This document shows positions 4,530 through 52,315 of a stretch of 64,000 nt of DNA, piece after piece (position 1 is the stretch's first letter; each line of letters opens with the position of its first letter). Below the pieces are notes generated by a model that had not been told where the DNA came from, searched no databases, and was given only the letters and a program-made list of their open reading frames with translations. The stretch lies in contig JBEKNE010000001.1 of assembly GCA_049523135.1 (NCBI GenBank), positions 287,770-351,769 on the forward strand, in the 5' to 3' direction. This DNA comes from Candidatus Microgenomates bacterium (GTDB lineage: Bacteria > Patescibacteriota > Microgenomatia > UBA8517). The position numbers and the translations under genes were made by a program.

Positions 4530-5156
4530 ATGTTGGGAACGAGGGTCTTGGAAGAAAGAGAATCAAAATACAACGGCAATCTGCGCGTGATTAATACTTT
4601 TGGAATGGGAACTTATATCCAAGCGGATGGGCTTACACAGTCAGGGGGAATAGTGGAAACAATTTGGAGACAAACTATCAAGAAAGTTAAAAGTAAAAAA
4701 CCGAAAGCTAAAAATTGTCTAATCTTGGGGCTTGGTGGCGGAACTGTGGCAAAATTAATTAAAAAAAACTGGCCGGAAGTTAGAATTGCAGGAATCGAAA
4801 TAGATCCGATTATGATAGAACTCGGGAAAAAATATTTAGGACTGGATCAGTTAGAGGTTGAAACAAAAATTGGAGACGCGTTTCAAGTAAATCAAAAATT
4901 AAAAAATGAAAAGTTTGATTTAATTATTGTCGATTTATATAACGGCGATAAATTTCCCGAAAAATTTGGAACGGAAAACTATATACGGTTTATGAGGACA
5001 ATTCTTACAAGTGGGGGAATTGTCGTTTTCAATCGTTTATATTATGGAGACAAAAGGCCGGAGACGGTAAAGTTTGGAGATAAACTCAAAAAAATCTTTT
5101 CGGAAGTTGAATGGTTTTATCCTGAGGCTAATTTGATGTTTCTTTGTTCAGGGTAG
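4530..5156 (+). CDS. Spermidine-synthase-like class I SAM-dependent methyltransferase-fold protein (short form)
   Basis: Gly-rich SAM/dcSAM loop LILGLGGGTVA and an IVDLYNGD acidic motif resembling aminopropyltransferases. Start placed at the ATG 6 nt downstream of a TATAAT (4518-4523). The upstream in-frame ATG at 4500 is the alternative. Confidence 0.5.
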   Translation: MLGTRVLEERESKYNGNLRVINTFGMGTYIQADGLTQSGGIVETIWRQTIKKVKSKKPKAKNCLILGLGGGTVAKLIKKNWPEVRIAGIEIDPIMIELGKKYLGLDQLEVETKIGDAFQVNQKLKNEKFDLIIVDLYNGDKFPEKFGTENYIRFMRTILTSGGIVVFNRLYYGDKRPETVKFGDKLKKIFSEVEWFYPEANLMFLCSG

Positions 5157-5182
5157 CTTCAAACCTGCTACAATATATAGCG

Positions 5183-7900
5183 ATGCTTAATATATTTTCT
5201 AGAATTTTGGATCTTAACGCCCGCGAAATTGACAGAGTCGGAAGAATTGTTGAGGAAATTAATTCATTTGAACCGAAAGTTAAAAAACTTAAGGATAAAG
5301 ATTTTGCCAAAAAAACCGAGGAGTTCAAAGAGAGAATCTCAAAAGGCGAATCTTTGGAAAAAATTCTTCCCGAGGCTTATGCACTTGTCCGCGAAGCTTC
5401 TTATAGAATCCTCGGAATGCGGCATTACGACGTTCAGCTTATGGCTGCAGTAGCGCTTTTCGAAGGCAAAGTTGCGGAACAAAAGACCGGAGAAGGAAAA
5501 ACTTTATCGGCTGTTCCCGCACTTTATCTCCATGCTTTAACGGGACGTGGTGCCCATCTTGTTACTGTAAATGATTATCTTGCCAGAAGGGATGCCGGCT
5601 GGAATGCACCTGTTTTTAATCTTTTGGGAATGAGTGTGGGTTCGATTATTCAGGAAAATAAATCATTTGTTTATGATCCTGAATTTACCGATTCAAGTCA
5701 TGGGGATGAAAGACTTGCCCACCTTAAACCTGCAGAAAGAAAACTGGCTTACCAAAGCGATATTTTATACGGAACCAATAATGAATTTGGTTTTGATTAC
5801 CTTAGAGATAACATGGTTTCCTCATTACCTGAAATGGTCCAGCGCGGGCACTATTTTGCAATAGTTGATGAGGTGGATTCCATTTTGATTGATGAAGCCA
5901 GAACCCCGCTTATTATTTCCGCTCCTGATACGGAACCGACGGATAAATATTATAAATTTGCTTCCATGGTTGATAAGTTAAATCCGGATACGGATTATAC
6001 AATTGATGAAAAAGCCAAAAGCGCGAGCCTAACGGAAACAGGAATTACTCGAGTAGAAAAAATACTCGGAGTGGACAACCTTTATGAAAAGGACTTCGAA
6101 TCAATTCATCATATTGAAAATGCTCTCCGGGCAAGAACTTTGTATCTCCGGGATAAAGATTATGTGGTTAAAGATAATCAAGTCATAATTGTTGACGAAT
6201 TTACGGGACGTCTTATGGTCGGCCGCCGCTGGAGTGACGGACTTCATCAGGCGGTTGAAGCAAAAGAGGGTGTGACGATTCAGCAGGAAAGCAAAACCTT
6301 GGCAACAATTTCTTTTCAAAATTACTTCAGAATGTATGAGCATCTTAGCGGAATGACGGGTACCGCCGCAACCGAGGCGGAGGAATTCAGAAAAATTTAT
6401 AAGTTGGAAGTTATTGTTGTTCCGACTAATAAACCAATGATCAGGCGCGACCTGCCTGACGTGATTTATAAGACCTTGAGAGGAAAGTATGGTGCAATTG
6501 TTAATGAAATTGGGGAGTGTTATAAAAAAGGGCAACCTGTGCTTGTAGGTACAACCTCAATTGAGAAGAATGAAATAATTTCGGAATATCTTAAAAGAAA
6601 GAAAATTCCTCATAATGTTCTAAACGCCAAAAATCACGAAAAAGAGGCGGAAATTATTGCTGAAGCCGGAAAACCGAGCGCGGTAACTGTTGCCACCAAC
6701 ATGGCCGGCCGTGGAGTTGATATAGTTCTCGGCGGTGCGGCTCCCGATAGATTGCCAGGGGTTAGTAATGAAAAATTCGAGTCGTTACCGGCTTATAAGG
6801 AGTGGAAGAAAGTTCATGAAAAAGTTGTAAAAGCAGGTGGTCTTCATGTAATTGGAACTGAACGTCATGAGGCACGTCGTGTAGATAATCAGCTTAGAGG
6901 AAGAAGCGGTCGTCAGGGAGATCCCGGAAGTTCCCGTTTTTACCTTTCAATGGAAGACGATCTTATGAGAATTTTCGGAGGGGAACAAATCGGGGGAATC
7001 ATGGGCAGGCTAAATCTTCCCGAAGACCAACCGATTGAAAATTCGTTAATCAGTCGTGCTATTGAGCAGGCACAGGTAAAAGTTGAAGGATTCCATTTTG
7101 ATATCAGAAAACGTCTTGTTGAATTTGATGATGTTGCAAACCAGCAAAGAGATATTATTTATAAACTAAGGAGGAGAATTCTTGACTCGAGTGACGTTAA
7201 AAGGGAGGTTCAGGAAAAACTCCATCAGCAAATAGAAAATACCGTACTTTTGAGCAAATCCGCAACAGATGAAAAATTTGATTATGAAAGGTTAGCGGTA
7301 GGACTTGCTGATATTATTCCTTTTGATGACGCTTCTTTAAAAAGAATCAAATCTCAACTCTCAAATATTGGGTCTCAAGAAGAAATTCAAAAATTTCTTG
7401 ATACTGTTTTGATGGATGTCTACGAGAAAAGGGAAAAAGATTTGAGTGCCAAAGTAATGAGAGAAGTTGAAAAGTTTGCCTATCTAGGTTCAATTGATCA
7501 TCTTTGGATGGATCACATTGATCATATTGATGATCTCCGCGAAGGCGTAACTCTCAGGGCCTACGGGCAGAGAGATCCTTTAGTTGAATTTAAAAATGAA
7601 GCCTACAATTTGTTTGAAAATTTAGTTAATAGAATTGATGAGGAGCTATCCCACAGAATCTTCAGAATTGGAGTTGCAATGCCGCAACCTGAAATTCCTT
7701 TGAATTTGGCAAGAGAAAATATAGATAGAAGTGATATGGAGGGTTTAGCCGGTAATGCGGAGCAGACAGCCAAATCCGGTGAGCCTGCTTTTGCCAAGTC
7801 AAATGTGGTGCATAAAAAAATCGGAAGAAATGATCCCTGCTGGTGTGGAAGCGGAAAAAAGTGGAAGCATTGCCACTATCCCCAATTGCCACCGAATTAA
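5183..7900 (+). CDS. secA: Preprotein translocase ATPase SecA
   Basis: Full-length SecA with its DEAD-like motor and a C-terminal zinc-binding tail CWCGSGKKWKHCH. Start chosen at MLNIFSRILD, which aligns to canonical SecA N-termini. Confidence 0.95.
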   Translation: MLNIFSRILDLNAREIDRVGRIVEEINSFEPKVKKLKDKDFAKKTEEFKERISKGESLEKILPEAYALVREASYRILGMRHYDVQLMAAVALFEGKVAEQKTGEGKTLSAVPALYLHALTGRGAHLVTVNDYLARRDAGWNAPVFNLLGMSVGSIIQENKSFVYDPEFTDSSHGDERLAHLKPAERKLAYQSDILYGTNNEFGFDYLRDNMVSSLPEMVQRGHYFAIVDEVDSILIDEARTPLIISAPDTEPTDKYYKFASMVDKLNPDTDYTIDEKAKSASLTETGITRVEKILGVDNLYEKDFESIHHIENALRARTLYLRDKDYVVKDNQVIIVDEFTGRLMVGRRWSDGLHQAVEAKEGVTIQQESKTLATISFQNYFRMYEHLSGMTGTAATEAEEFRKIYKLEVIVVPTNKPMIRRDLPDVIYKTLRGKYGAIVNEIGECYKKGQPVLVGTTSIEKNEIISEYLKRKKIPHNVLNAKNHEKEAEIIAEAGKPSAVTVATNMAGRGVDIVLGGAAPDRLPGVSNEKFESLPAYKEWKKVHEKVVKAGGLHVIGTERHEARRVDNQLRGRSGRQGDPGSSRFYLSMEDDLMRIFGGEQIGGIMGRLNLPEDQPIENSLISRAIEQAQVKVEGFHFDIRKRLVEFDDVANQQRDIIYKLRRRILDSSDVKREVQEKLHQQIENTVLLSKSATDEKFDYERLAVGLADIIPFDDASLKRIKSQLSNIGSQEEIQKFLDTVLMDVYEKREKDLSAKVMREVEKFAYLGSIDHLWMDHIDHIDDLREGVTLRAYGQRDPLVEFKNEAYNLFENLVNRIDEELSHRIFRIGVAMPQPEIPLNLARENIDRSDMEGLAGNAEQTAKSGEPAFAKSNVVHKKIGRNDPCWCGSGKKWKHCHYPQLPPN

Positions 7901-7911
7901 TTTGTTATAAT
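7886..7911 (+). promoter_or_regulatory. Possible promoter (TTGCCA - 14 nt - TATAAT) 7 nt upstream of the FKBP ATG
   Basis: TATAAT at 7906-7911 with the ATG at 7919. The -35 spacing is suboptimal. Confidence 0.3.
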
Positions 7912-7918
7912 AACTTCC

Positions 7919-8431
7919 ATGAATAAGCAATATTTATTTGTTACGATTTTTCTTATTGTTTTAATCATTGGTGGTGTAATTTTTACCTTTTCTGGGAAAA
8001 AGGAAGAAAAGCAAGTATTACAAACCCCAACTCCTTCTGCTACTATTACTCCTGAGGCATCAGAGACGCCGGCGGCAACAGAGTCTGCTAAAATACAAAC
8101 CATGGAAGACGGATTACAAATTCAAGATGAAGTAGTGGGAACAGGGGTAGAAGCAGTAAGTGGGAAAAGCGTAACGGTAAATTATGTCGGAACTCTTACC
8201 GACGGGACAAAATTTGACAGCTCTTATGACAGAAACCAACCCTTTACCTTTACACTTGGCGCCGGTGAAGTTATTCAGGGATGGGATCAGGGAGTTGCCG
8301 GAATGAAGGTTGGAGGAAAAAGAAAATTAACAATTCCTTCGTCTCTCGGATACGGTGCGACAGGAGCCGGTGGGGCAATTCCTCCCAATGCGACTTTAAT
8401 TTTTGAAGTAGAACTTCTTAAGGTTGAATAA
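7919..8431 (+). CDS. Membrane-anchored FKBP-type peptidyl-prolyl cis-trans isomerase
   Basis: N-terminal TM helix, then a Thr/Pro/Ala-rich linker, then an FKBP domain (VTVNYVGTLTDGTKFDSSYDRNQPFTFTLGAGEVIQGWDQG...LIFEVELL). Confidence 0.8.
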   Translation: MNKQYLFVTIFLIVLIIGGVIFTFSGKKEEKQVLQTPTPSATITPEASETPAATESAKIQTMEDGLQIQDEVVGTGVEAVSGKSVTVNYVGTLTDGTKFDSSYDRNQPFTFTLGAGEVIQGWDQGVAGMKVGGKRKLTIPSSLGYGATGAGGAIPPNATLIFEVELLKVE

Positions 8432-9534
8432 TGGCAAGAAAGTTTTTTAAGTCTAGAAGTAGCAATATTCCTCTGCCGATATTTTTTCCGGATGCAACAC
8501 GGGCAGTTGTAAGGTCGATCGATACATCTGATCTTGAATCTTCAAAAACTCCGGGCGTTTTAGTAAATACTTTTCATCTTTGGCAGGAGCTTAATGAGAG
8601 CACTTTAAAAAAATTTGACGGAATCGCAAAATTCATGGGTTTTAAGGGTGGAATAATCTCTGATTCCGGGGGATTCCAAGTAATGTCTGTGATTAAATCC
8701 GGAAATGTTAAAGGAAGAATTACGGACGAAGGTGTTGTTTTTTATCCAACCAGAAAAACCAAAAAAATTTTAACTCCGGAAAAATCAATTGATTTTCAGA
8801 TTGAGTTGAAAAGCGATATGGTTATCGTACTGGATGATTTTACGAATCCGAAATCTTCATATAAAGAAGCTAGAGAGTCGGTTGAGCGGACTATCTTTTG
8901 GGCAAAGCGCAGTAAAGATGAATTTATCAAAGTTTGTGATCGGGAGAAACTTGGTGAGGCCGAAAGACCCTACATTTTGGGTGTAGTGCAAGGCGGGAAG
9001 TACCAAGATCTTAGAAAATATTGTGCGGAAGAACTGACAAAGATTGGTTTTGATGGCTTGGGTTTCGGTGGTTGGCCGATTGATGATAAAGGAAATTTTG
9101 ATCTTGATTCGGCAAAGACAATTGTCGAAAACACACCCGAAAATTATTTTTTGTACGGACTCGGAGTCGGAAAACCGGAGGATATTATTAAATGCGTCAA
9201 ATTGGGATTTAATATTTTTGATTGTGTTTTACCGACACGTGACGCGCGGCACGAGCGGCTCTATATTTACAACGCCGGATCGATTGATGAAATTAATATA
9301 ATGAAGCCCGATTTTTATTCTTTTTATAGACCCGATAGGGAAAAATGTTTAGATGATGGCTCCCCAGTAAGCCTTGCTTGTGATTGTCTTCTTTGTAAAA
9401 AATACTCAAAAGCTTATCTTGCACACCTTTTTAAAATTAACGACTTTACCGCCGGTAGGCTTGCGACGATTCATAATTTGAGATTTTATTCCATATTTAT
9501 GGAAAAACTTCGGGAAACTCTTGACAGGAAGTAG
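8431..9534 (+). CDS. tgt: tRNA-guanine transglycosylase family (queuine tRNA-ribosyltransferase-like)
   Basis: Catalytic DSGGFQ and FDCV motifs and a C-terminal zinc site CDCLLC...H. The N-terminus is shorter and more divergent than classical bacterial Tgt. Confidence 0.8.
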   Translation: MARKFFKSRSSNIPLPIFFPDATRAVVRSIDTSDLESSKTPGVLVNTFHLWQELNESTLKKFDGIAKFMGFKGGIISDSGGFQVMSVIKSGNVKGRITDEGVVFYPTRKTKKILTPEKSIDFQIELKSDMVIVLDDFTNPKSSYKEARESVERTIFWAKRSKDEFIKVCDREKLGEAERPYILGVVQGGKYQDLRKYCAEELTKIGFDGLGFGGWPIDDKGNFDLDSAKTIVENTPENYFLYGLGVGKPEDIIKCVKLGFNIFDCVLPTRDARHERLYIYNAGSIDEINIMKPDFYSFYRPDREKCLDDGSPVSLACDCLLCKKYSKAYLAHLFKINDFTAGRLATIHNLRFYSIFMEKLRETLDRK

Positions 9535-9550
9535 TGTAAGTGTTTATACT
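9521..9550 (+). promoter_or_regulatory. Sigma70-like promoter (TTGACA - 18 nt - TATACT) ~11 nt upstream of the 9562 start codon
   Basis: Perfect -35 hexamer TTGACA at 9521-9526 and TATACT at 9545-9550. No Shine-Dalgarno between the -10 and the ATG. Confidence 0.45.
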
Positions 9551-9561
9551 GCTACGCAAAT

Positions 9562-10215
9562 ATGGAAGACGAACAAAATTCGCAAAGTCAGACACAGGAA
9601 AGTCCTCAAGTTTCCAGTCCAACACAGGGAAACGGGGTTTCTTTCCCGACAGTAGGTGAACCAAAGAAAAGCGGGGGAGCAAAAACCTTGTTGATTATTG
9701 GAATTCTTATATTAGTCGGAATACTTGGATTTGTGATTTATAAAAATGCTTCTAAAGGAAGTGAGACAACTTTAACTCAGCCAACACCTTATGACAATTT
9801 AACAACTTCGGATCAGAATCAAGCTACTACGGTAGCTACGGCAACACCGGCAGCTTTCGATAGAAGTAAAATTAAAGTCCAAATTCAAAACGGAACAGGT
9901 ATTGCAGGAGAAGCAGCATATCTCCAAACTCAGTTAAAGGGATTGGGATATACAAGTGTTTCAGTTGCGAATTCCGCTCAGCAAAATTTAACCACTGCAC
10001 AGGTTAGTTTCTCGAGTTCGCTTTCACAAAGTGCGGTTGATGAGCTGACTAATGAACTTAATTCAATTTATCAAAATGTTACCAGTACGAATTCCGCGAG
10101 CCCCACTTATGATGTTGTTATCATAACAGGACTCAGAAAAGGAGCGACAGCTAAGCCTTCGGCTACACCAACTTCGACTCCGGCCGCTACGCCGACAGCT
10201 TCACCTACTCCGTAA
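9562..10215 (+). CDS. Membrane-anchored LytR_C-like domain protein with Pro/Thr/Ala-rich termini
   Basis: TM helix, a LytR_C-like core (KVQIQNGTGIAGEAAYLQTQLKGLGY) and a low-complexity C-terminal tail ATAKPSATPTSTPAATPTASPTP. Confidence 0.5.
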   Translation: MEDEQNSQSQTQESPQVSSPTQGNGVSFPTVGEPKKSGGAKTLLIIGILILVGILGFVIYKNASKGSETTLTQPTPYDNLTTSDQNQATTVATATPAAFDRSKIKVQIQNGTGIAGEAAYLQTQLKGLGYTSVSVANSAQQNLTTAQVSFSSSLSQSAVDELTNELNSIYQNVTSTNSASPTYDVVIITGLRKGATAKPSATPTSTPAATPTASPTP

Positions 10216-10237
10216 TTCTTCTGTGTTAAAATAAATT

Positions 10238-10699
10238 GTGGCAAGTATAGCTAAACTTATCGTCGGCAGTTTTACTTTAAACTTGGGAAAGTTTTCTCTC
10301 CCCGTTACCTATATTCAGGCAATTGCAGTTCTTGCCCTTATTTTTTTTCTTGTCTTAATTCTTGCGCAGTTTAGGAGGCACTATGTCAACTGGTCTTTTA
10401 AAGGAGCCCTGTTTGGAATTGTTATCGGTTTTTTATTGGCTTTAGCTCTTGAAGGATTCTTACTTGTTGGTGGGAAAACCGTACTGATAAGTGTTTTGGG
10501 CTGGAAAAACCCGCCCGCTCCAATCTCAAATGCACTTGATGCAGGAAGAAGTAAATTGCTTCAGGTTTTGGGAACGGAAACTCAGGTTTCACCGACTCTT
10601 ATACAGGATGAAGTTACTGTAACCAATGCAATTGAACTTTTTCAAAGTTTAAACCCGACTGATATAAAAAAGGTAAAGTCGATTATTTGCCAACCTTGA
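10238..10699 (+). CDS. Hypothetical polytopic membrane protein
   Basis: GTG start; 3 predicted hydrophobic helices; no family recognised. Confidence 0.4.
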   Translation: MASIAKLIVGSFTLNLGKFSLPVTYIQAIAVLALIFFLVLILAQFRRHYVNWSFKGALFGIVIGFLLALALEGFLLVGGKTVLISVLGWKNPPAPISNALDAGRSKLLQVLGTETQVSPTLIQDEVTVTNAIELFQSLNPTDIKKVKSIICQP

Positions 10700-10756
10700 T
10701 TTTTGTTCCCGCCCTTTACTTTTAACTTTTGCCTTCTTTGGATATACTTCAGATAT

Positions 10757-11806
10757 ATGCAAGATATTGATGGAAAGGTTGATCAAATGACCTCCCGTTT
10801 GAATAAATTAATTGAGGTGGTGGATATTCCGAGTAAAAAGAAGAAAATAGAGGAACTTGAGGCTAAAGCGGCTGAGCCTTCTCTTTGGAACGATCCTCAA
10901 AGTGCCCGCGGGGTTACGCAGGAGCTTTCCGACCTGAAAAAGGAGGTGGAGGAAATTACCGATCTTTCGGATACGTTGGAAATTCTGAAGGAAGTGCCGG
11001 ATGAAGCCGAGGCCAGAAAGGCCGAGAAAGCTCTCGGGAAGCTTGAGCTAATATCTTATTTATCGGGTGAATATGATGCTAAAAACGCCCTAATTTCAAT
11101 CCATGCCGGCCAGGGAGGGACTGAAGCGATGGATTGGACAAATATGCTTTACCGCATGTATCTCAGGTTCTGCGAGCGTCAGGGATGGCCTACAGAGACT
11201 CTGGATTACACGGCTGGGGAAGAAGCCGGAGTCAAAAGTGTAACTTTTAAGGTTACGGGGCACTTCGCCTATGGCTACCTTAAGGGTGAGGCAGGAACCC
11301 ACAGGCTTGTCAGACAGTCTCCATTCAATGCGGATAAGCTTAGGCAAACTTCATTCGCCTTGGTTGAAGTGATGCCTGAGCTTGCCGATACCGATCTTAA
11401 GGATATTGAGATCAAGGATACCGACCTGGATTGGCAGTTCATTCACGCAGGAGGACATGGGGGTCAGAATGTAAATAAGGTGGCGACAGCAGTCCGGCTT
11501 ACCCACGTCCCGACAGGGATTGTAATTACGGCTTCAACCGAACGTTTTCAGGAACAAAATAGAAAAGCAGCCCTGGAACTACTGCGTGCCAAGCTTTGGA
11601 TTAGGCAGCAGGAAGTTGAGAAAGGTTTGAAAAAGGAGATTAAGGGTGACTATCGTCCGGCTTCATGGGGAACTCAAATCCGAAGCTATGTTCTTCATCC
11701 ATATAAGATGGTTAAAGATCTTCGTACGGATGTGGAAATCGGAAATACTGAGGCCGTTCTTGATGGAGGAATTGATGAATTTATAGATGCTGAGTTAAAA
11801 CTCTAA
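10757..11806 (+). CDS. prfB: Peptide chain release factor 2 (contiguous ORF, no programmed +1 frameshift)
   Basis: SPF tripeptide (RQSPFNA) and GGQ motif (HAGGHGGQNVNK); aligns along its length with RF2. Start at MQDIDGKVDQ, by homology with RF2 N-termini. Confidence 0.9.
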   Translation: MQDIDGKVDQMTSRLNKLIEVVDIPSKKKKIEELEAKAAEPSLWNDPQSARGVTQELSDLKKEVEEITDLSDTLEILKEVPDEAEARKAEKALGKLELISYLSGEYDAKNALISIHAGQGGTEAMDWTNMLYRMYLRFCERQGWPTETLDYTAGEEAGVKSVTFKVTGHFAYGYLKGEAGTHRLVRQSPFNADKLRQTSFALVEVMPELADTDLKDIEIKDTDLDWQFIHAGGHGGQNVNKVATAVRLTHVPTGIVITASTERFQEQNRKAALELLRAKLWIRQQEVEKGLKKEIKGDYRPASWGTQIRSYVLHPYKMVKDLRTDVEIGNTEAVLDGGIDEFIDAELKL

Positions 11807-11854
11807 TTTGGATTTGCTTTTTTGAGTTTTTAGGTGTTATATTGAGGTTAACCT

Positions 11855-12286
11855 ATGGAACCTCAAAATAAAAATATTTTCTCCAGGATTGATTTCAAAA
11901 AAAACTGGCCGTTTATTGCAATAGGATTGGCAATTATTCTTATCGGAGTCGGAACCTCATGGTTTATTTCTACAAGGTTAATAAATCAAACCAGCAGTGG
12001 TGAAGCTGCTCCTGGAGTAAAAGTTACTTCAACTGAAGCCGGAGTGCTGGATCCAAGCGTTAAGTATGATACTGCACAGGGGGTTGTGCAGGAGGGCGGA
12101 CTAAATGGTGAGGGTACTTTTCACCTTGTTCGTGACGGCGGACCATCCGACTATGTTTATTTAACTTCAAGTGTTCTTGATCTGAGTAATTTTGTTAATA
12201 AAAAAGTACAGATTTGGGGAGAAACTCTTGCTTCCAAAAAAGTCGGCTGGCTAATGGACGTAGCCAAGGTCCAGGTAACCCAGTAA
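11855..12286 (+). CDS. Hypothetical membrane-anchored exported protein
   Basis: N-terminal TM anchor followed by a Ser/Thr/Gly-rich linker and a small beta-rich domain. Confidence 0.4.
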   Translation: MEPQNKNIFSRIDFKKNWPFIAIGLAIILIGVGTSWFISTRLINQTSSGEAAPGVKVTSTEAGVLDPSVKYDTAQGVVQEGGLNGEGTFHLVRDGGPSDYVYLTSSVLDLSNFVNKKVQIWGETLASKKVGWLMDVAKVQVTQ

Positions 12287-12341
12287 ACTTTTAACACTGG
12301 CTTTATGCCTTTTCACTTGATACCCTAAAGTATCTTGTATT

Positions 12342-13013
12342 ATGTCTCAGGAAGAAAATAATTTGATAGTTTTTAAAGATGTTACGAAAGTATTCGGTCC
12401 GCTGACTGCGCTGGACAAAGTTTCCTTTGAAGTTAAAAATGGGGAATTTGTGTTTATCACGGGTCCTTCAGGTGCGGGCAAGACTACGATCTTAAAATTA
12501 ATATTGGGTGAGCTTATTCCGGATTCGGGAGGGGTAGTTGTGGACGGATCCGATGTTGCAAAGCTGACGGAAAAAGATTTACCTTCTTACCGCCAGAAAA
12601 TAGGAACGGTTTTCCAGGATTTTAAAGTTCTTTCTGAGAGAACTGTTTTTGAAAATACTGCGGTAGCGCTTGCCGTAATTGGACTTCCCGAAAGCGAATG
12701 GGACCTAAGAGTTCAACATGTTTTAAAATTAGTTGGGCTTTCCAGAAATTCCGATCATTTTCCGTCCCAGCTTTCCGGAGGAGAACTTCAGAGAGTTTCA
12801 CTTGCGCGTGCTTTGGTAGTCAATCCTAAAATAATTTTGGCAGATGAACCGACCGGAAACTTGGATTGGGAAACTTCCGACAATCTTATGCAGCTTTTTG
12901 AGAAAATAAACAAAGAGGGTAAAACCATTATTATGGCTACGCATAATATGGAAATAGTTAAAAAATACAAAAAAAGAATTATTAATATTGTGGGTGGTAA
13001 AATAAATAAATGA
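12342..13013 (+). CDS. ftsE: Cell-division ABC transporter ATP-binding protein FtsE
   Basis: Walker A GPSGAGKTT, ABC signature LSGGELQR and Walker B ILADEPTGNLD; ~220 aa, the typical FtsE length. Immediately followed by ftsX. Confidence 0.9.
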   Translation: MSQEENNLIVFKDVTKVFGPLTALDKVSFEVKNGEFVFITGPSGAGKTTILKLILGELIPDSGGVVVDGSDVAKLTEKDLPSYRQKIGTVFQDFKVLSERTVFENTAVALAVIGLPESEWDLRVQHVLKLVGLSRNSDHFPSQLSGGELQRVSLARALVVNPKIILADEPTGNLDWETSDNLMQLFEKINKEGKTIIMATHNMEIVKKYKKRIINIVGGKINK

Positions 13014-13924
13014 ATATTCATTTTAAAACTGCTTGGGGATATATCAGACGTTCTCCATTTCAGGCGCTTGCCGTATCATTTGTTCTTACTTTAACCTTTT
13101 TTGTGGCAACTTTGGTTTCTACCCTTGTTTATTCATCCTCAAAACTTATTAATTATTTTGAAACAAGACCTCAGGTAATTGCATTCTTAAAAAGTGATGC
13201 ACAGGATTCCGATATAGCGGATCTGCAGCATAAACTTGAAGATAATCCCCACATTAAAGACGTTAAGTATGTCAGCAAAGAGGAAGCGCTTTCAATTTAT
13301 AAAAATGCCACAAGCGACAATCCGCTATTAGGACAGCTTGTTGACCCGTCGATTTTCCCGGCATCACTTGAATTTTCCGTAACGGATTTATCTTTTGCTC
13401 AAAACATAATTGATCAGGTAAAAACCGAAAATATAGTAGATTCTGTTGGTTTTACTGCAGCTCTTGGGGGTGAATCCAGTTTAAATAGTGTTATTCAGAG
13501 ACTGAAAACAATTACAACTTACGTAAGAATTGGAGGAGCGGTTTTTGTGGGACTTTTGGCCGTAACCTCGCTTGTTGTTCTTCTTGTGATTACCAGTATG
13601 AGGGTTGTAGGAAGGAGAGAGGAAGTTGACATTTTGAATCTTATCGGGGCAACAAAAGGGTTTATTAGAAGCCCGATTGTTATTGAAGCTTTTATTTATA
13701 CTATTTTCGGAGTGGTCTTGGGTTGGGCAATTGCCTTTATTGCAGTCTTGTATTCTGCACCGACTATTGTTTCTTATTTCGGAGAAATTCCCATCCTTCC
13801 CAAAGATGTCTTGGGAATTCTTGAACTTTTTGGAGTAATACTTGCAATTGAACTTTTTGTCGGTGCGGCCCTTGCACTTTCCGGAAGTTTATTGGCAGTT
13901 TCGAGGGTTAAGAAAGTAAGATGA
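13010..13924 (+). CDS. ftsX: Cell-division permease-like protein FtsX
   Basis: N-terminal TM, a large extracytoplasmic loop, and the C-terminal FtsX 3-TM bundle. Start overlaps the ftsE stop. Confidence 0.85.
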   Translation: MNIHFKTAWGYIRRSPFQALAVSFVLTLTFFVATLVSTLVYSSSKLINYFETRPQVIAFLKSDAQDSDIADLQHKLEDNPHIKDVKYVSKEEALSIYKNATSDNPLLGQLVDPSIFPASLEFSVTDLSFAQNIIDQVKTENIVDSVGFTAALGGESSLNSVIQRLKTITTYVRIGGAVFVGLLAVTSLVVLLVITSMRVVGRREEVDILNLIGATKGFIRSPIVIEAFIYTIFGVVLGWAIAFIAVLYSAPTIVSYFGEIPILPKDVLGILELFGVILAIELFVGAALALSGSLLAVSRVKKVR

Positions 13925-15126
13925 AATTGGGCTATGGTAAAAAAAAATTATTTCTCCTCTCTTTAGCAGTAGGATTTTTTTTCTTCTTAGTTGGTGAAGT
14001 TAAAGCACAAACTTCCTGTGATAGTATGTGTGATCCAAGTGACAAAACATGTTTGAGTAATTTGCAGAATCTTTGTCAGGCCAAGGTTACAGAACTTGGC
14101 AATCAGGCAAACACACTTTCAAATCAAATTGCCCAATTTAATGCGCAAATTAAACTTACCTCACTTAAAATTTCTCAAACTGAAGCTCAAATTGCTCTTT
14201 TGGGTGGAAGAATTGATCAACTTGGACAATCTTTGGATAGTCTAAATCAAGCTTTTTCAGCAAGAGTAGTAGAAACTTATAAACTTTCGAGATTTGAAAA
14301 TAATTTTATTTTTCTTCTTTCGGCATCAAATCTGACGGATGCAGTATCAAGAATGCATTATCTTGAGAAAATTCAGGAAGAAGATAGGGATTTGCTTAAT
14401 AGATTACAAACTGCTCAGTCGACCTATCAGGGACAAAAACAAAGTCAAGAAAATTTGCAAAAACAGTTGCAGGTACAGCAGTCAAGCTTAAATCAGCAAA
14501 AAGCAGCAAAAAATGAATTATTGGCGGCGACTCAGAATAGTGAAACAAAATATCAATCCCTTTTGTTACAAGCTCGAAAAGAATTAGCAGCATTATCTCA
14601 ATATGCTCTAGGTAGGACTTCGACTGCACCAAATCAAACAGTTTGTGATGACTGGGGTTGTTATTATGCACAAGGTGACCCTCAATGGGGAAATATGATG
14701 CTTGGTAATTCTGGTTATACGGTTACGCAAGCTGGATGTTTAATAACCTCAAGTGCAATGATAGCAACTCATTATAAAAGAAACTATAAAAGAAACTTGA
14801 CTCCAGCTGATGTAGATACCGATCCTTCAGCGGGTTGGTTGTCTAAGACCATTACTGTCAATGGGGTGACAATAACAAGAACAAGTATAGGTGCCGACCC
14901 TTCTAATGTAAGTACTACAATAAATAGTATTGATAGTGAATTGAATGCTGGTAGACCTGTGATTGTTGGTTTAAGTGGACCTCATTTTATAGTTTTGCGA
15001 AGTGGGTCCAAAGGAAATTATAAAATGAATGATCCTTTAGGCAAAGATATCGGATATGATAAAGACTTCTCTAGTCAATATAGCCTTTCTGACATAATAG
15101 ATGTTGAGAGTGTGAGTGTGAATTGA
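13921..15126 (+). CDS. FtsEX-associated coiled-coil peptidoglycan hydrolase (PcsB/EnvC-like) with C-terminal papain-like (C39-like/CHAP-like) cysteine peptidase domain
   Basis: Signal peptide; a Cys-rich stretch (CDSMCDPSDKTCLSNLQNLC); a long Q-rich coiled coil containing the EnvC/PcsB-type segment ARVVETYK...FLLSASNLTDAVSRMHYLEKI. The C-terminal domain carries Cys (QAGCLITSAM) and His (GPHFIVL) motifs. Start overlaps the ftsX stop (ATGA). Confidence 0.7.
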   Translation: MKLGYGKKKLFLLSLAVGFFFFLVGEVKAQTSCDSMCDPSDKTCLSNLQNLCQAKVTELGNQANTLSNQIAQFNAQIKLTSLKISQTEAQIALLGGRIDQLGQSLDSLNQAFSARVVETYKLSRFENNFIFLLSASNLTDAVSRMHYLEKIQEEDRDLLNRLQTAQSTYQGQKQSQENLQKQLQVQQSSLNQQKAAKNELLAATQNSETKYQSLLLQARKELAALSQYALGRTSTAPNQTVCDDWGCYYAQGDPQWGNMMLGNSGYTVTQAGCLITSSAMIATHYKRNYKRNLTPADVDTDPSAGWLSKTITVNGVTITRTSIGADPSNVSTTINSIDSELNAGRPVIVGLSGPHFIVLRSGSKGNYKMNDPLGKDIGYDKDFSSQYSLSDIIDVESVSVN

Positions 15127-15253
15127 AAAAATTTAGGTTATCCAACGATGCATTTGTAATTCCAATAGTACTAAATTTCGAAATTGTTACTGATTATAAT
15201 AATAAATATTTATATAGGTTTTATTAACTCCCTAATTTTTAGTATCATTAGGA

Positions 15254-15676
15254 ATGTCTAGAAAAATTTTGAAATTTCTTAATTTATGGCTTCCTCCGAT
15301 TTTGTGGGCAGCCCTTATTTTTAAGTTTTCATCGGGAAGTATTCCTGTAGCCTCGCAAGTTTTTTGGCAGGACTTTATTATTAAAAAAACCGGCCACGTT
15401 CTGCTCTTTGGCATGTTCGCACTTCTTTCTTACAGGGGACTTACCGGTGAGGGGCTAAGCCGTAAAAAAGCTGCAATTTGGTCTGTTGCTATAGCGTTTT
15501 TGTACGGCGCATCCGATGAATTCCACCAAATGTTTACCCAGGGACGGGAAGCGACTGTCAGGGACGTTTTTATAGATGGAATTGGGGCAGGCGTTGTGAT
15601 GTATCTTTTCTATAATTTTTTGCCAAGGTTGCCTAAAAAAGTTCGTCTGTTTTTGCTACAATTCGATATCCTATGA
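15254..15676 (+). CDS. VanZ-like family membrane protein
   Basis: About 140 aa with 4 TM helices; KTGHVLLFGMFALL and SDEFHQ motifs typical of VanZ-like proteins. Confidence 0.65.
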   Translation: MSRKILKFLNLWLPPILWAALIFKFSSGSIPVASQVFWQDFIIKKTGHVLLFGMFALLSYRGLTGEGLSRKKAAIWSVAIAFLYGASDEFHQMFTQGREATVRDVFIDGIGAGVVMYLFYNFLPRLPKKVRLFLLQFDIL

Positions 15677-16665
15677 AAAAAATATTGGTAACGGGCGGAG
15701 CCGGCTACATAGGATCGTTTATGGTCCGCGAACTTCAATTGAAGGGTTTTGAACCGGTTATTGTGGATAATCTGTCGCAAGGACACAAAGAATCAGTTAA
15801 AGATTTTAGATTGGAGACTATCGATTTGGTTACGGAAAAAGAAAAATTGGATGCTCTTTTAACTTCCGAAAAATTTGACGGTGTAATTCATATGGCAAGT
15901 TTTATTCAAATGGGTGAGTCATATGCAAATCCTGCTAAGTATTACAAAAATAATGTGATAGGGATGATGAATTTACTCGATTCCATGAGGAAAAGCGGAA
16001 CCAATAAAATTATTTTATCCAGCAGTGCCGGAGTTTACGGTAATCCCGTTAAGCTTCCGATTGAAGAGGATGATCCCAAAAATCCGCTTAACCCTTACGG
16101 GGAAACAAAATATATTATGGAGCGGATGCTTGAGGATTACGATGCGGCTTACGGAATTAAATTTATAGGTATCCGCTATTTTAATGCGGCGGGAGCGGCA
16201 CTCGACGGAAGCATTGGTGAGGACCATCCGGAAGAAAGCCATTTAATTCCCAATATTATTAAAAAAGCCCTAAAAGGTGAGGAAATTGAAATCTTCGGTC
16301 AGGATTATAAAACGCCTGACGGAACTAATGTCAGGGATTATATCCACGTAATGGACCTGACGGAAATACATTCTACCGCTATGCAAAAATTACTGGATGG
16401 AGCCGAGAGCAATTTTTATAATGCAGGAATCGGCAGGGGATATTCAAATAAGGAAGTAATCGACATGATAAAAACAGTAACAGGGTTGGATTTGAAAATA
16501 AAATATGGTGAAAGAAGAGCGGGGGATGCCGATACCCTTTATGCATCAATTGAAAAGATCGGACATGATTTTTCCTGGGCTCCTAAATACGGATTAAAGG
16601 AGATTGTTGAAACTGCCTATGCTTGGCACAAAAATCACCCCCAAGGGTATGCTAATATGGATTAA
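15673..16665 (+). CDS. galE: UDP-glucose 4-epimerase
   Basis: N-terminal Rossmann motif VTGGAGYIGS and the SSSAGVYG/YxxxK catalytic region; 330 aa. Confidence 0.85.
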   Translation: MKKILVTGGAGYIGSFMVRELQLKGFEPVIVDNLSQGHKESVKDFRLETIDLVTEKEKLDALLTSEKFDGVIHMASFIQMGESYANPAKYYKNNVIGMMNLLDSMRKSGTNKIILSSSAGVYGNPVKLPIEEDDPKNPLNPYGETKYIMERMLEDYDAAYGIKFIGIRYFNAAGAALDGSIGEDHPEESHLIPNIIKKALKGEEIEIFGQDYKTPDGTNVRDYIHVMDLTEIHSTAMQKLLDGAESNFYNAGIGRGYSNKEVIDMIKTVTGLDLKIKYGERRAGDADTLYASIEKIGHDFSWAPKYGLKEIVETAYAWHKNHPQGYANMD

Positions 16666-17570
16666 TGACCCTTTTTGAAACCCTAAGACATATATTTGTT
16701 CCTCACGAGAGTAATAACCAGAAGGCAAAGCTACTGCACCCAGAAGGTTTATTCCTAATTATTATTGGGCTTATTTTTTATCAGCTAATGTTGGGCTTTA
16801 TCCATAAGGCGTTTCCGGAAGTATTGGGGTATGCGGCCAATATTTCTCCATCCGAAGTAATCAGTTTGACAAATCAGGAGAGAGTTGAAAACGGTCTGGC
16901 TCCCCTTAACGCAAATTCCACATTGTCCCAAGCTGCGGTGGCTAAGGGTAATGATATGCTTGCCAAGGGCTATTGGGCTCATTTTGCGCCCGACGGGACT
17001 TCACCTTGGAGCTTCTTTTTGAAATTCGGGTATAAGTATGAATATGCGGGAGAAAACTTGGCTCGGGATTTCCCGGATGCCGCCTCGGCCGTTACCGCCT
17101 GGATGAATTCCCCTTCCCATAGAGAAAACATTTTAAATCCCAACTATCAGGATATCGGTATCGGAGTTGTTGAAGGAAACTTGGCGGGTGTGGATACGAC
17201 CATAATTGTTCAATTTTTTGGAACTCCACTGGGAAGTCAGGCTTCAGTACCCGTTGTGCAGGCTAAAGAAGAAACAACCGTTTTGGGTGCCAAGCCGACC
17301 TATGTGCCTTCCCCAACCGCAACTCCCGGTGCGGCAGTTGTCTATGAAGCCACTTCGGCGGCTATCGTTTCATTTATTTCACCTTTCACTTCAACTAAAA
17401 GTATTTCGCTTCTGGTTACGGGAATCTTGATTTTGGTTCTGTCTGCCGATCTCATTATTGTTAGAAGAAAAAGGATTGCCAGGATTGGAGGAAGAACCCT
17501 GGCGCATTTGGCATTTTTCGGAATGATTTTAGCGGTTATACTGATACTGAAAGCGGGGCAGGTCATATGA
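16665..17570 (+). CDS. CAP/SCP (YkwD-like) domain protein flanked by N- and C-terminal TM helices
   Basis: CAP-domain motifs (GYWAHFAPDG, AWMNSPSHRENIL). A Pro/Thr/Ala-rich linker sits before the C-terminal hydrophobic segment. Confidence 0.7.
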   Translation: MTLFETLRHIFVPHESNNQKAKLLHPEGLFLIIIGLIFYQLMLGFIHKAFPEVLGYAANISPSEVISLTNQERVENGLAPLNANSTLSQAAVAKGNDMLAKGYWAHFAPDGTSPWSFFLKFGYKYEYAGENLARDFPDAASAVTAWMNSPSHRENILNPNYQDIGIGVVEGNLAGVDTTIIVQFFGTPLGSQASVPVVQAKEETTVLGAKPTYVPSPTATPGAAVVYEATSAAIVSFISPFTSTKSISLLVTGILILVLSADLIIVRRKRIARIGGRTLAHLAFFGMILAVILILKAGQVI

Positions 17571-17827
17571 AAGAATTTATAAAAGATTTATCTCACTATT
17601 TAGTACTTTTTGGGATACTTTTGGCAGGATTTACCGGACTTATAATTTTTTCCTATGATAAGTCTTTTCAAATTGCCGTATCTTTAGCCTTGGTTGCGGC
17701 TTACGTTTCATGGGGAGTGGTACACCACTATCTTCACAAAGATCTGCATTTCGAAGTAGTTCTGGAATATCTTGTTGTTGCGGTATTGGGGTTTGTAATT
17801 ATTTTTTCAATAATAGTTAGGACGTGA
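17567..17827 (+). CDS. Small 2-3 TM membrane protein (hypothetical)
   Basis: 86-aa hydrophobic ORF whose start overlaps the upstream stop (ATGA). Confidence 0.35.
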   Translation: MKEFIKDLSHYLVLFGILLAGFTGLIIFSYDKSFQIAVSLALVAAYVSWGVVHHYLHKDLHFEVVLEYLVVAVLGFVIIFSIIVRT

Positions 17828-17866: not shown

Positions 17867-18757
17867 ATGAAAAAGGTAACTAAAGCAGTAATTCCGGCGG
17901 CAGGCTTCGGTACGAGATTTTTACCCCAAACCAAGGCTATGCCCAAAGAGATGCTTCCGATCGTGGATAAACCGATAATTCAATATATTGTTGAGGAACT
18001 GGTTGATGCAGGAATAAAAGACATAATTATTGTAACAGGCTACCACAAGCGTACTATTGAGGACCATTTTGACTATCCGAATCTTGATTTGGTTGAGAAT
18101 CTTAAGATGGGTGGAGACAAGAAACGCCCGCTTTTGGAAGAGGTTGAAAAAATTGCGGATTTGGCTAATTTTATCTATGTCAGGCAAAAAGGCCCTTACG
18201 GTAACGGCACGCCACTACTCAACGTTAGGGATATAATCGGAGACGAACCTTTTATTTATACCTGGAGCGATGACTTTATCGTTGCCCATCCCTCAAGATT
18301 TAAACAGCTGATTGCAGCCTATGAAAAGTACGGATATAGCTGTCTTAGCGGTGTAAAAGCGATTAAAGATGAAGATTATGACAGATATGGTTTTGTCGGC
18401 GGAAAGAGTCTCGAGCCCGGGGTTATTGATGCCAATGTGATTATAGAAAAGCCTGGTAAAGAAAACGCCCCTTCCGATCTGGCCACTGTTTCGGGATTTT
18501 TATTCACTCCCGATATTTTTGATTGTTTGGACAGAGCTTTAGCCAGGCTTGAAGACGGTCGGGAATTTTATTATGTGGATGCCCTGAAACTTATGCTTGA
18601 GGATGGGAAGCATGTGCTTGGGGTAGAAATAAAGGACGGCAAATACTATGATACCGGCAATAAGCTTGAGTACCTAAAAACTGTAGTTGAATTTGCTCTG
18701 AAACACCCGGATATGGGTGAAAAATTTAGAGATTATCTCAAATCCCTGGAGTTTTAA
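17867..18757 (+). CDS. galU: UTP--glucose-1-phosphate uridylyltransferase
   Basis: AVIPAAGFGTRFLPQTKAMPKEMLPIVDKPIIQY, the canonical GalU N-terminus; 296 aa. Confidence 0.9.
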   Translation: MKKVTKAVIPAAGFGTRFLPQTKAMPKEMLPIVDKPIIQYIVEELVDAGIKDIIIVTGYHKRTIEDHFDYPNLDLVENLKMGGDKKRPLLEEVEKIADLANFIYVRQKGPYGNGTPLLNVRDIIGDEPFIYTWSDDFIVAHPSRFKQLIAAYEKYGYSCLSGVKAIKDEDYDRYGFVGGKSLEPGVIDANVIIEKPGKENAPSDLATVSGFLFTPDIFDCLDRALARLEDGREFYYVDALKLMLEDGKHVLGVEIKDGKYYDTGNKLEYLKTVVEFALKHPDMGEKFRDYLKSLEF

Positions 18758-22319: not shown

Positions 22320-22852
22320 TGATTTTCACTCCAACAAAAATTGACGGAATGTTTGAAGTTACTCTTGAACCCCATGAAGACGAAAGAGGTTATTTCAGAC
22401 GTATGTTTGCCGAAGAGGAATTTGCAAAGGCGGGGATAACCGATTTCAAAATAGTCCAAATTAATCAAGCTTATACAAAATCTGCCGGGGTTTTGCGGGG
22501 ACTTCACTGGCAGACGGAACCAAAACTGGAAGCGAAATACTTCCAATGTTTAAATGGAGAGATCTTTGATGTTGTGGCAGATACAAGACTGGATTCAAAA
22601 ACTTATGGTGTCTGGGCGGGTTTTCATCTCAAGAGTGACGAAAAGAAACTTTTGTTTATTCCCGGAGGCGTTGCCCATGGATATGAAACATTAACAGATA
22701 ATTGCATGGTTCAATATATGGTTTCGGAATTTTATTCGCCTGAGGTAGAAAAAGGTATCAGATGGAATGACCCCACATTTAATATTGAATGGCCTCTTGA
22801 ACCCACCTTCATGTCCGAAAAAGATAAAAATCTGCCGGATTTTAAAAAATGA
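22319..22852 (+). CDS. RmlC-like cupin sugar-nucleotide 3,5-epimerase (predicted to act on the CDP-4-keto-6-deoxyhexose)
   Basis: About 177 aa; ERGYFRRMF and RGLHWQ motifs of the dTDP-4-dehydrorhamnose 3,5-epimerase family. Confidence 0.8.
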   Translation: MIFTPTKIDGMFEVTLEPHEDERGYFRRMFAEEEFAKAGITDFKIVQINQAYTKSAGVLRGLHWQTEPKLEAKYFQCLNGEIFDVVADTRLDSKTYGVWAGFHLKSDEKKLLFIPGGVAHGYETLTDNCMVQYMVSEFYSPEVEKGIRWNDPTFNIEWPLEPTFMSEKDKNLPDFKK

Positions 22853-52312: not shown

Positions 52313-52315
52313 TCT

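Follow-up and report, generated by a model that had tools for sequence, protein, structure and literature searches.

The DNA analysed here is a 64,000-nucleotide stretch of contig JBEKNE010000001.1 (assembly GCA_049523135.1), called the window below, in which three membrane-anchored proteins carry segments rich in threonine (T), proline (P) and alanine (A). The proteins are an FKBP-type peptidyl-prolyl isomerase (PPIase), a protein with a LytR_C domain and a CAP/YkwD-like protein, and a reading made from the letters of the DNA (the sequence-only reading) had proposed that their segments are acceptor sites for PMT/ArnT-like O-glycosyltransferases encoded further downstream. The G+C content of the window is ~38-40% and the forward strand holds nearly all of the genes. 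When the FtsX protein of the window was used as the query, 17 syntenic loci (53-84% identity) were found in metagenome-assembled genomes named Candidatus Woesebacteria, Microgenomates or Patescibacteria, and this synteny identifies the host, as judged from sequence, as a member of Candidatus Woesebacteria in the Patescibacteria or candidate phyla radiation (CPR) and not as an actinobacterium. CPR bacteria are mostly uncultured, have small genomes and many unassigned membrane glycosyltransferases, and depend on their cell surface to mediate host dependence. The three proteins and their segments, with the transmembrane (TM) helices that anchor them, are as follows (positions are nucleotides (nt) of the window; aa, amino acids).

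7919-8431, + strand: anchored FKBP-type PPIase of 170 aa (Pfam FKBP_C, E 4e-39), 19 nt downstream of secA
7934-7990, + strand: N-terminal TM helix or signal anchor of the FKBP protein, aa 6-24 (hydropathy scan)
8021-8086, + strand: FKBP linker QTPTPSATITPEASETPAATES, aa 35-56; T+P 10/20 and T+P+S+A 16/20, in a wider low-complexity stretch (7991-8104)
9562-10215, + strand: protein of 217 aa with a TM helix and LytR_C domain (Pfam LytR_C, E 5.8e-08), Cei-like in architecture
9742-9867, + strand: T-rich juxtamembrane disordered linker of the LytR_C protein, aa 61-102, a coil in the AlphaFold2 (AF2) model with a predicted local distance difference test (pLDDT) score of 53-61; missed by the sequence-only reading
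10144-10212, + strand: free C-terminal tail of the LytR_C protein, ATAKPSATPTSTPAATPTASPTP, aa 195-217; T+P 12/20 and T+P+S+A 19/20
16665-17570, + strand: CAP/YkwD-like protein of 301 aa (Pfam CAP, E 4.9e-18)
17292-17363, + strand: CAP linker KPTYVPSPTATPGAAVVYEATSAA, aa 210-233; T+P 9/20, in a wider stretch (17232-17399) that ends just ahead of TM2
17400-17558, + strand: C-terminal TM2, basic loop RRKRIARIGGR (6 K/R) and TM3 of the CAP protein, near-invariant in orthologues

All three of the T/P-rich sequences quoted earlier are present at these positions and the FKBP_C, LytR_C and CAP domains are confirmed by Pfam. The CAP linker had been placed at 17285-17345; it is present and its exact span is 17292-17363. 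Peptide stretches within the segments include GATAKPSATPTSTPAATPTASPTP in the LytR_C tail as well as QTPTPSATITPEASETPAATESAK and PTYVPSPTATPGAAVVYEATSAA.

The segments were scored by the maximum number of T plus P residues in any 20 consecutive residues, which was determined for the 57 proteins of the window (background 5.0% T and 4.2% P). The FKBP, LytR_C and CAP proteins reach 10, 12 and 9, respectively, each of the other 54 stays at 7 or below, and no other protein of the window comes close. When the residues of the 57 proteins were pooled and shuffled, at least three proteins at 9 arose in 0.3% of the shuffles and any protein at 10 in 2%; a protein at 12 arose in 0 of 1000, and so did a T+P+S+A count of 16 or more. 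Shuffling within the FKBP protein gives p = 0.006 for its linker, and in composition both this linker and the CAP segment are of low complexity. Taken alone, the CAP segment is marginal, as a score of 9 arises in 19% of the pooled shuffles and the within-protein p is 0.01-0.02, and it is rescued because the nine orthologues of the protein have richer P/T linkers at the same place. In all nine (9/9) the linker is P/T-rich and variable in length (e.g., PTPSPTPTPTP).

Among the syntenic orthologues the composition of the segments is kept while their sequence and length vary, and the composition is thus under selection. The clearest conservation is that of the LytR_C tail, which is found as '...TGLRKGATAKPSATPTP...SPTPTP' in 13 of 13 syntenic orthologues with variable length; the exact LytR_C protein also occurs on 12 metagenome contigs, including contigs from peat. 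An exhaustive HMMER search with this protein found 1795 cluster representatives (50% identity clusters) at E <=1e-3. Among the best 150 of these, 145 are full-length, and 133 of the 145 (92%) have at least 13 T, P, S or A in the last 20 residues while 119 of the 145 have at least 8 T or P there. Judged from these sequences, the T/P-rich tail is a family-wide hallmark of the LytR_C protein. FKBP orthologues were found in 15 related loci, and the close relatives among them keep a semi-conserved 'TPxPSATI' in the linker. A homologue search found ~20 single-domain FKBP orthologues of 167-184 aa, all with a TM helix followed by a linker of 34-40 residues rich in T, S, A and P, in which a 'T(S/A)xPSATI' motif is semi-conserved. 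Anchored double-FKBP homologues from other phyla (P0157, P0164, P0167, P0204 and P0221, some of them named Anaerolineae or Bdellovibrionota) were also seen, many with A/P/T/Q-rich low-complexity linkers that start directly past the N-terminal hydrophobic segment.

The domain architecture of the LytR_C protein was examined further. PF13399 (LytR_C) scores 34 bits (cut-off 22.2) and the domain follows the N-terminal TM helix. An AF2 model built on a 67-sequence alignment has a TM helix (residues 40-64), a coil (65-100, pLDDT 53-61), a folded domain (101-195, pLDDT >95) and a tail (196-217) that is coil without secondary structure, its pLDDT falling from 81 to 69. The disordered regions have the properties that define such regions in streptococci, namely a length of at least 10 residues, no secondary structure, low model confidence and an adjacent folded domain. 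The segments had been said to adjoin a TM anchor. This does not hold for the LytR_C tail, which lies ~135 residues past the helix, and the second T/P-rich region of the same protein, the linker at aa 61-102, does follow the helix. The cytoplasmic N-terminus of the protein (9565-9687) consists of ~40 disordered residues rich in Q, E, S, K and P; it is family-wide and unlike the regions outside.

The proposal that the segments lie on the extracytoplasmic side was examined with the charge rule, by which two of the three proteins have their segments outside. The architecture of the CAP protein is TM1, the CAP domain, the linker and a C-terminal TM hairpin, and the six K/R in the loop after TM2 place the linker and the CAP domain outside. 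For the LytR_C protein the charges (3 K/R before the helix and 2 after it) indicate an N-in topology, weakly. LytR_C domains are known as extracytoplasmic, and this known location together with the weak charge bias puts the linker and the tail outside. The FKBP linker is ambiguous by charge; it may lie outside the cell as in the anchored foldases PrsA and PpiD, because K/R are conserved at positions 2-4, because the top NCBIfam matches of the protein are FKBPs of the FkpA/FklB/BamJ type (none reaching its cut-off) and because the gene lies so close behind secA.

Two comparisons indicate that the T enrichment is specific to the outside compartment. In the first, 409 open reading frames (ORFs) were called greedily in the window and the 17 related loci (378 kb), and a protein was counted as T/P-rich when 20 residues held at least 9 T+P with at least 3 T and at least 3 P. 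Among the 207 proteins that lack a TM helix there is no such stretch (0/207), among the 142 that combine one to three TM helices with a soluble domain there are 41, and among the 60 scored as polytopic there are three, all of them CAP orthologues; the counts are inflated by orthology and involve at least five families. Two borderline stretches (9/20) lie N-terminal to a TM helix on the predicted cytoplasmic side, in the orthologues of the 11855 protein from loci L018 and L021, for which the most upstream start codon was assumed. In the second comparison, the residue composition of the disordered regions was determined for 124 representatives of the LytR_C family:

cytoplasmic N-terminus: T 5.8%, P 10.1%, S 10.1%, Q 11%, E 10.8%
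outside juxtamembrane linker: T 14.6%, P 16.3%, S 13.3%
C-terminal tail: T 25.1%, P 22.5%, S 16.5%, A 11.7%, D+E 4.4%

The tail differs from the N-terminus with p = 3e-22 (Wilcoxon), and S+T make up 41% of the tails, interleaved with P and A and not homopolymeric. Disorder by itself needs no threonine, and the enrichment in hydroxy-amino acids is therefore specific to the outside compartment. The tail also has a free end and is thus no spacer, which points to a role in modification, shielding or binding. Of the computational arguments, the outside T enrichment combined with the free tail speaks most strongly for a role as modification site or shield. Taking the above together, we hold with high confidence that the segments are selected, extracytoplasmic, disordered T/P-rich regions.

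The segment genes lie in a region that leads into a large envelope-glycan island. The other genes of this region are:

5144-7900: secA
8431-9534: tgt
10238-10699: small membrane protein
10703-11806: peptide chain release factor gene (PCRF and RF-1 domains)
11855-12286: bitopic protein
12342-13924: ftsE and ftsX
13921-15126: PcsB-coiled-coil / C39-like protein
15254-15676: VanZ
15673-16665: GalE-like epimerase
17567-17827: DUF5656-like protein
17867-18757: GalU-like nucleotidyltransferase

The genes for VanZ, the GalE-like epimerase, CAP and the DUF5656-like protein (15254-17827) are chained in the manner of an operon, each stop overlapping the next start, and GalU comes next (chain to 18757). 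The stop of GalE and the ATG of CAP overlap by one base (TAATG), and this junction is kept in the related loci L008, L009, L011 and L013; an exported CAP protein thus sits amid sugar-nucleotide genes. In NCBIfam the CAP protein matches only YkwD (124 bits) and DalA (67 bits), both under cut-off, and that scan matched its linker and TM region to none of the known families of C-terminal sorting signals. A conserved 'SPF(x)(S/T)TK' motif lies directly ahead of TM2 (window 17364-17558), and the last helix, 'LAHLAFFGMILAVILILKAGQII', is near-invariant, far above the conservation of an ordinary anchor. Because of this excess, the sequence suggests that the C-terminal region of CAP has a specific partner or a sorting function. 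In most relatives the PcsB-like gene and VanZ are separated by an additional gene (L007:7833-8738, L008:9459-10289, L009:12206-13318, L013:12245-13054, L023:12043-12882 and others), which is missing from L011 and from the window, where the equivalent position is the gap 15127-15253. Its product has a signal peptide, an 'AQVVINE' lamin-tail-like domain and a very long PT linker (up to PTPTPTPTPTPTPTATPTPT), and ends with a conserved 'VLG' motif ~25-35 residues ahead of a C-terminal TM helix that is followed by a KK tail. The CAP linker of the window has 'TVLGAKPTYVPSP' as well.

The envelope-glycan island starts at 17.8 kb, takes up the rest of the window and contains GalU, an rml-like operon, GT2 and GT4 glycosyltransferase genes (at least 10), a flippase and 16 polytopic proteins. 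The features of the island that bear on glycosylation are:

20464-23718: rml-like operon (nucleotidyltransferase, 4,6-dehydratase, 3,5-epimerase, reductase)
28666-29814, + strand: GT2 with a GtrA/DPMS TM domain, candidate polyprenyl-phosphate-sugar synthase (Glycos_transf_2 E 9e-27, GtrA_DPMS_TM E 9.8e-13)
31264-32004, + strand: ArnC/GtrB-like GT2 that overlaps the start of a PMT_2-type GT-C gene (Pfam GT2 E 2.7e-31)
31986-33542 and 34506-36008, + strand: two PMT_2-type GT-C genes (PMT_2 45.4 and 28.8 bits) with a DHH-family gene (DHH/DHHA1) between them
39382-41766, + strand: YfhO-family GT-C of 794 aa, candidate protein or glycopolymer glycosyltransferase (YfhO 76.6 bits, cut-off 28.5)
42730-44217 and 44218-45720, + strand: two PMT_2-type GT-C genes (PMT_2 25.8 bits against a cut-off of 26.1, and 47.6 bits)
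45753-47255: Wzx-type flippase
48936-53515, + strand: two YfhO/PTPS_related GT-C paralogues (40% identical) and a GT87-like GT-C (Pfam)
55930-63720, + strand: five tandem PMT_2-type GT-C genes (PMT_2 35.8-66.4 bits; DE pair in all five)

The presence of the rml-like operon implies that the envelope glycans contain a 6-deoxyhexose, rhamnose for example. The count of more than ten PMT/ArnT-like enzymes downstream stands, since 13 GT-C proteins can be assigned to a family: nine PMT_2-type (eight over the Pfam cut-off), three YfhO/PTPS_related and one GT87. Three more polytopic island proteins are without a Pfam family (30085-31275 on the minus strand, 47245-48933 on the plus strand and 54065-55936 on the minus strand). 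When these three and small exported proteins were put through relaxed Pfam scans (E <=5), neither Wzy_C/PglL nor any other family was matched, and 30085-31275 resembles the NCBIfam AZOBR_p60025 cell-surface glycopolymer-formation family, far under cut-off. The proteins 47245-48933 (562 aa) and 54065-55936 (623 aa), which have no Pfam or NCBIfam family, are 33% identical over ~540 residues, and one of this pair is the only minus-strand gene within the GT-C array. Several old subfamilies can be told apart among the GT-C proteins: 31986/34506/42730, 55930/58896/60551/62119, the singletons 44218 and 57287, the YfhO/PTPS groups 39382 and 48936/50618, and the GT87-like 52316.

The nine PMT_2 paralogues are mutually 16-37% identical and share an invariant Arg, an invariant Asp just past TM1 (a DE pair in 7/9) and a second invariant Arg. 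PF02366 (PMT) is over its cut-off in 44218 (35.7 bits), 57287 (30.0), 58896 (31.6) and 60551 (27.2), each time with a weaker match than PMT_2. An AF2 model of 62119-63720, with the nine paralogues as the alignment, has a pLDDT of 70.9 and a predicted template-modelling score of 0.75, with the invariant D35 past TM1. In Foldseek this model has a GT-C_A fold with 19 PDB GT-C matches at E <=1e-3; the best E-values are those of AglB, STT3 and PglB and the best mutual TM-score (0.52-0.53) is that of ArnT. Yeast Pmt1/2/4 appear from rank 22 on as partial matches (Pmt1 E 4.6e-3, 265 columns, TM-score 0.31). The shared PMT_2 motifs and the GT-C_A fold of the model indicate that these are genuine GT-C transferases; they are not GT39 orthologues. 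The GT-C array is thus predicted to comprise lipid-phosphate-sugar-dependent transferases with an outward-facing catalytic loop.

Closer assignments were tried and rejected. PMT_4TMC (PF16192) has no match at E <=0.01 in any GT-C protein of the window, and two PMT_2 paralogues, compared by phmmer with every PDB chain, matched none of the GT-C type, so a Pmt or ArnT assignment of these two from sequence was dropped; with the PMTs at rank 22 or lower in the fold search, a GT39 Pmt identity was rejected for the window GT-Cs as a whole. An ArnT equivalog was likewise rejected (NCBIfam PRK13279, 18-22 bits against a cut-off of 567). When 20 proteins of the window were scanned against NCBIfam, none reached an equivalog cut-off, and the matches below it (Agl23, ArnT, PgfS, PgfM1/M2, Cei, YkwD and DalA) are no more than leads. 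The top NCBIfam match of the GT2 at 28666-29814 is PgfS (70 bits, far under cut-off) and that of the GT2 at 31264-32004 is an ArnC-type undecaprenyl-phosphate sugar transferase (71.7 bits, under cut-off). The C-terminus of the YfhO protein is weakly PgfM1/PgfM2-like (E ~1e-8, 31-33 bits against cut-offs of 1400-1500), and for the GT2 and YfhO proteins together PgfS/PgfM1/PgfM2 orthology is not reached (31-70 bits against cut-offs of 500-1500). No mannose-activation gene (GDP-mannose, Ppm1) was recognised within the window, in which the sugar-nucleotide genes are GalU, the GalE-like epimerase and the rml-like operon.

These observations can be joined in a mechanism of a known kind. The acceptors would be disordered, extended T/P(S/A) regions on the outer side of a monoderm-type Woesebacteria cell, carried by a post-translocation FKBP foldase, a Cei-like LytR_C protein and a CAP/YkwD-like protein. 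A GT2 at the cytoplasmic face (candidates 28666-29814 and 31264-32004) would load a monosaccharide onto polyprenyl phosphate, the lipid-linked sugar would be flipped across the membrane, and a GT-C with an outward-facing acidic loop-1 motif, possibly the YfhO-type 39382-41766 or one of the PMT_2 paralogues, would move the sugar to T/S hydroxyls of the segments. The attached glycans would stiffen the segments and guard them from proteolysis. From composition, sidedness, the enzyme classes available and precedent, we consider that the segments may well be O-glycosylated by such a lipid-phosphate-sugar/GT-C route, a reading that falls only slightly short of probable. That a GT-C encoded in the window carries out the transfer is a more doubtful suggestion.

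Several points weigh against O-glycosylation by this route. The segments consist of T alternating with P/A and are not poly-Ser/Thr tracks as described for streptococci. In the FKBP protein, 1 K before the helix and 3 K plus 2 E after it make the charge rule uninformative on orientation, and the linker is acidic or gone in the most distant syntenic orthologues. The negative searches described above (PMT_4TMC, PDB chains and NCBIfam equivalogs) count on the same side. OST (oligosaccharyltransferase), ArnT, DPY19, ALG9, Pmt, AftD and Emb structures all match the 62119-63720 model, so that the fold is blind to acceptor type, and the acceptors of the window GT-Cs are unreadable from sequence or fold. 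The acceptor genes are 14-46 kb from the GT-C array, and the 17 related loci end short of any GT-C gene. The make-up of the island (rml-like operon, Wzx-like flippase, many GT2/GT4) fits wall-polysaccharide assembly equally well, and because of this and the distance the proximity of the array is weak evidence. Other bacteria also have proline-rich spacers without glycans (TonB, the OmpA hinge and the E2 lipoyl linkers), though these are typically rich in Ala/Glu/Lys rather than Thr.

To the best-surviving alternative we give a considerable chance while holding it to be less than probable: the segments may be unglycosylated spacers or 'entropic bristles' of polyproline-II-like conformation that hold domains off the membrane, span the wall or keep the proteins soluble, and the GT-C array may build or decorate a glycopolymer of the wall or membrane, for instance a polysaccharide that contains rhamnose or a polymer resembling teichoic acid. 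The GT-C genes do share their island with the rml-like operon, GalU, the Wzx-type flippase and the many GT2/GT4 genes, YfhO and ArnT-like enzymes are able to act on teichoic acids, lipid A and polysaccharides (PMC12041528), and 16 divergent polytopic paralogues (16-40% identity) are nearer to the mycobacterial arabinan/mannan machinery than to a protein glycosylation system. The very long PT linkers that relatives carry ahead of C-terminal anchors resemble wall-spanning regions, and acidic sequence can stand in for the FKBP linker, as it does in distant orthologues. A free C-terminal tail is no spacer, however, and yet it is the best conserved of the three segments; Pro, Ala or Gly would suffice for a spacer, whereas Thr is enriched 4-5-fold and outside only; and comparable PPIase and LytR segments have been found glycosylated wherever they were tested.

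It is unlikely that the segments are O-glycosylated by a route encoded outside the window, either en bloc by a PglL/Wzy_C-type oligosaccharyltransferase from a flipped undecaprenyl-diphosphate (Und-PP) oligosaccharide or by a cytoplasmic glycosyltransferase before export. The window is ~6% of a genome of ~1 Mb, a Wzx-like flippase for Und-PP-linked oligosaccharides is present, and the en bloc O-oligosaccharyltransferase of Neisseria modifies many lipoproteins and TM proteins including the FKBP protein Mip. Against this, no Wzy_C/PglL-like family was found in any protein of the window, the three unassigned polytopic ones being scanned to E <=5, no accessory Sec or GtfA/B-type genes were seen in the window, and the components of a monosaccharide-lipid route (GT2 and GT-C) are plentiful there. 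A more extreme form of the O-glycosylation proposal, in which the tails are covalent anchoring points of the wall glycopolymer itself in the manner of a proteoglycan, is very improbable. Drift of functionless low-complexity sequence or replication slippage tolerated in linkers, which would account for the varying sequence and length among orthologues and for the statistically marginal CAP segment, is highly improbable and largely refuted by the conservation data, since Tandem Repeats Finder (7900-17600) found the linkers to be without tandem DNA repeats and the T, P and A codons are mixed, so that recent slippage is rejected, position and composition are kept across orthologues (FtsX 53-84% identical) and in family representatives down to ~30% identity, the bias is compartment-specific, and none of the 207 non-membrane proteins has such a stretch.

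O-glycosylation of the segments by the GT2/GT-C route is therefore best described as a plausible but unproven extension of a known kind of modification to CPR bacteria. The suggestion that the segments are targets keeps its support from composition, T specificity, enzyme classes and precedents, while the acceptor is unassignable and the island also fits a wall glycan. We tentatively extend it to a general proposal, about as credible as the spacer explanation was judged to be, that CPR bacteria run an extracytoplasmic protein O-glycosylation in which T/P linkers and tails are the acceptor modules and members of the expanded, divergent GT-C repertoire are the transferases; the family-wide LytR_C tail is the clearest case of such a putative module. 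Nothing relevant came up when the literature was searched for protein glycosylation and for YfhO or GT-C enzymes in these bacteria (CPR, Patescibacteria, Microgenomates and Woesebacteria). If the proposal is true, the CPR would have its first described protein glycosylation system, the tails would be the first concrete substrate class for the unassigned CPR membrane glycosyltransferases, and the glycosylation of disordered regions on envelope-biogenesis proteins would reach a third, deeply divergent monoderm-type lineage beyond Firmicutes and Actinobacteria. If the tails prove to be unmodified, the finding is one of ordinary low-complexity spacers.

The segments and enzymes of the window can be compared with several known systems. 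The Cei protein of mycobacteria (Rv2700, an envelope-integrity protein) has the same order of an N-terminal TM helix followed by LytR_C, and the match of the window protein to it is weak (NCBIfam E 4e-4, 20 bits against a cut-off of 150). ArnT (GT83) is the best mutual structural match to the 62119-63720 model, the PMT_2 family is common to both, and one window paralogue has an ArnC-like GT2 directly upstream. CPR bacteria are not known to make lipid A, and the acceptor of the ArnT-like window enzymes must therefore differ from that of ArnT. In the PglL/PglO system of Neisseria, O-glycosylated lipoproteins and TM-anchored periplasmic proteins include an FKBP-type PPIase, as the FKBP lipoprotein Mip is an O-glycoprotein (PMC11130364), and this class of protein is shared with the window. 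Transfer in Neisseria is en bloc from an Und-PP-oligosaccharide by a Wzy_C-type oligosaccharyltransferase, none of which was detected in the window.

In composition the closest match to the window segments is found in the alternating Thr-Pro linkers of CelA from Caldicellulosiruptor bescii, a non-actinobacterial monoderm, whose glycosylation needs a GT39 enzyme (Cbes_1864) and protects from proteolysis (PMC6151902). The acceptors in C. bescii are secreted multidomain cellulases that are modified in inter-domain linkers, and the GT39 gene lies in the locus of the substrate, whereas the candidate acceptors in the window are small envelope-biogenesis proteins whose genes are not tightly linked to a GT-C gene. 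In the actinobacterial Ppm1/Pmt system (GT39; Mycobacterium tuberculosis and Streptomyces coelicolor) a GT-C enzyme modifies Thr/Ser of Sec-exported or membrane-anchored envelope proteins with a polyprenyl-phosphate-sugar as donor, and two LCP proteins belong to the glycoproteome that depends on Pmt in S. coelicolor, whose sites lie in an Ala/Pro/Gly-rich context (PMC6593405). The window paralogues share with Pmt the PMT_2/PMT N-terminal module and the loop-1 DE motif. Unlike that system, which the sequence-only reading had taken as its model, the window has no PMT_4TMC and no visible mannose-activation gene, and it has nine divergent paralogues in place of a single Pmt; the host is a CPR bacterium, and no protein of the window passes as a GT39 Pmt.

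The streptococcal system, rather than the actinobacterial Pmt, is the best-matched experimental precedent. Streptococci O-glycosylate disordered regions that are rich in Ser/Thr, extracytoplasmic and often C-terminal; the proteins with such regions are PrsA (a PPIase foldase), LytR/BrpA, PBP1a, PknB and FtsQ, and the glycans shield these regions against proteolysis (PMC12041528). The enzymes are a GT-A undecaprenyl-phosphate-sugar synthase (GtrB or PgfS) and a YfhO-family GT-C (PgtC2 or PgfM1) (Rahman et al. 2025, PMC12041528), with GtrB plus PgtC2 acting in Streptococcus pyogenes as well as Streptococcus pneumoniae and PgfS plus PgfM1 (with PgfE and PgfM2) in Streptococcus mutans (PMC12041528). 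The window differs in being from another phylum (CPR). Its foldase is FKBP-type with the disordered region as an N-terminal linker, whereas PrsA is parvulin-type with a C-terminal region; its LytR_C protein is without the LCP catalytic domain of LytR; its segments alternate Thr/Pro/Ala in place of poly-Ser/Thr tracks; and its YfhO homologue is distant from PgfM1/PgfM2. What the two have in common is the classes of proven or candidate acceptors, a membrane-tethered PPIase foldase and a LytR-type envelope protein, disordered regions next to a folded domain, which in the window lie outside the membrane for LytR_C and CAP and are ambiguous for FKBP, and the machinery, as the window encodes a YfhO-family GT-C, a GT2 with a GtrA/DPMS TM domain and a GalE-like epimerase, an epimerase being part of the Pgf operon as well.

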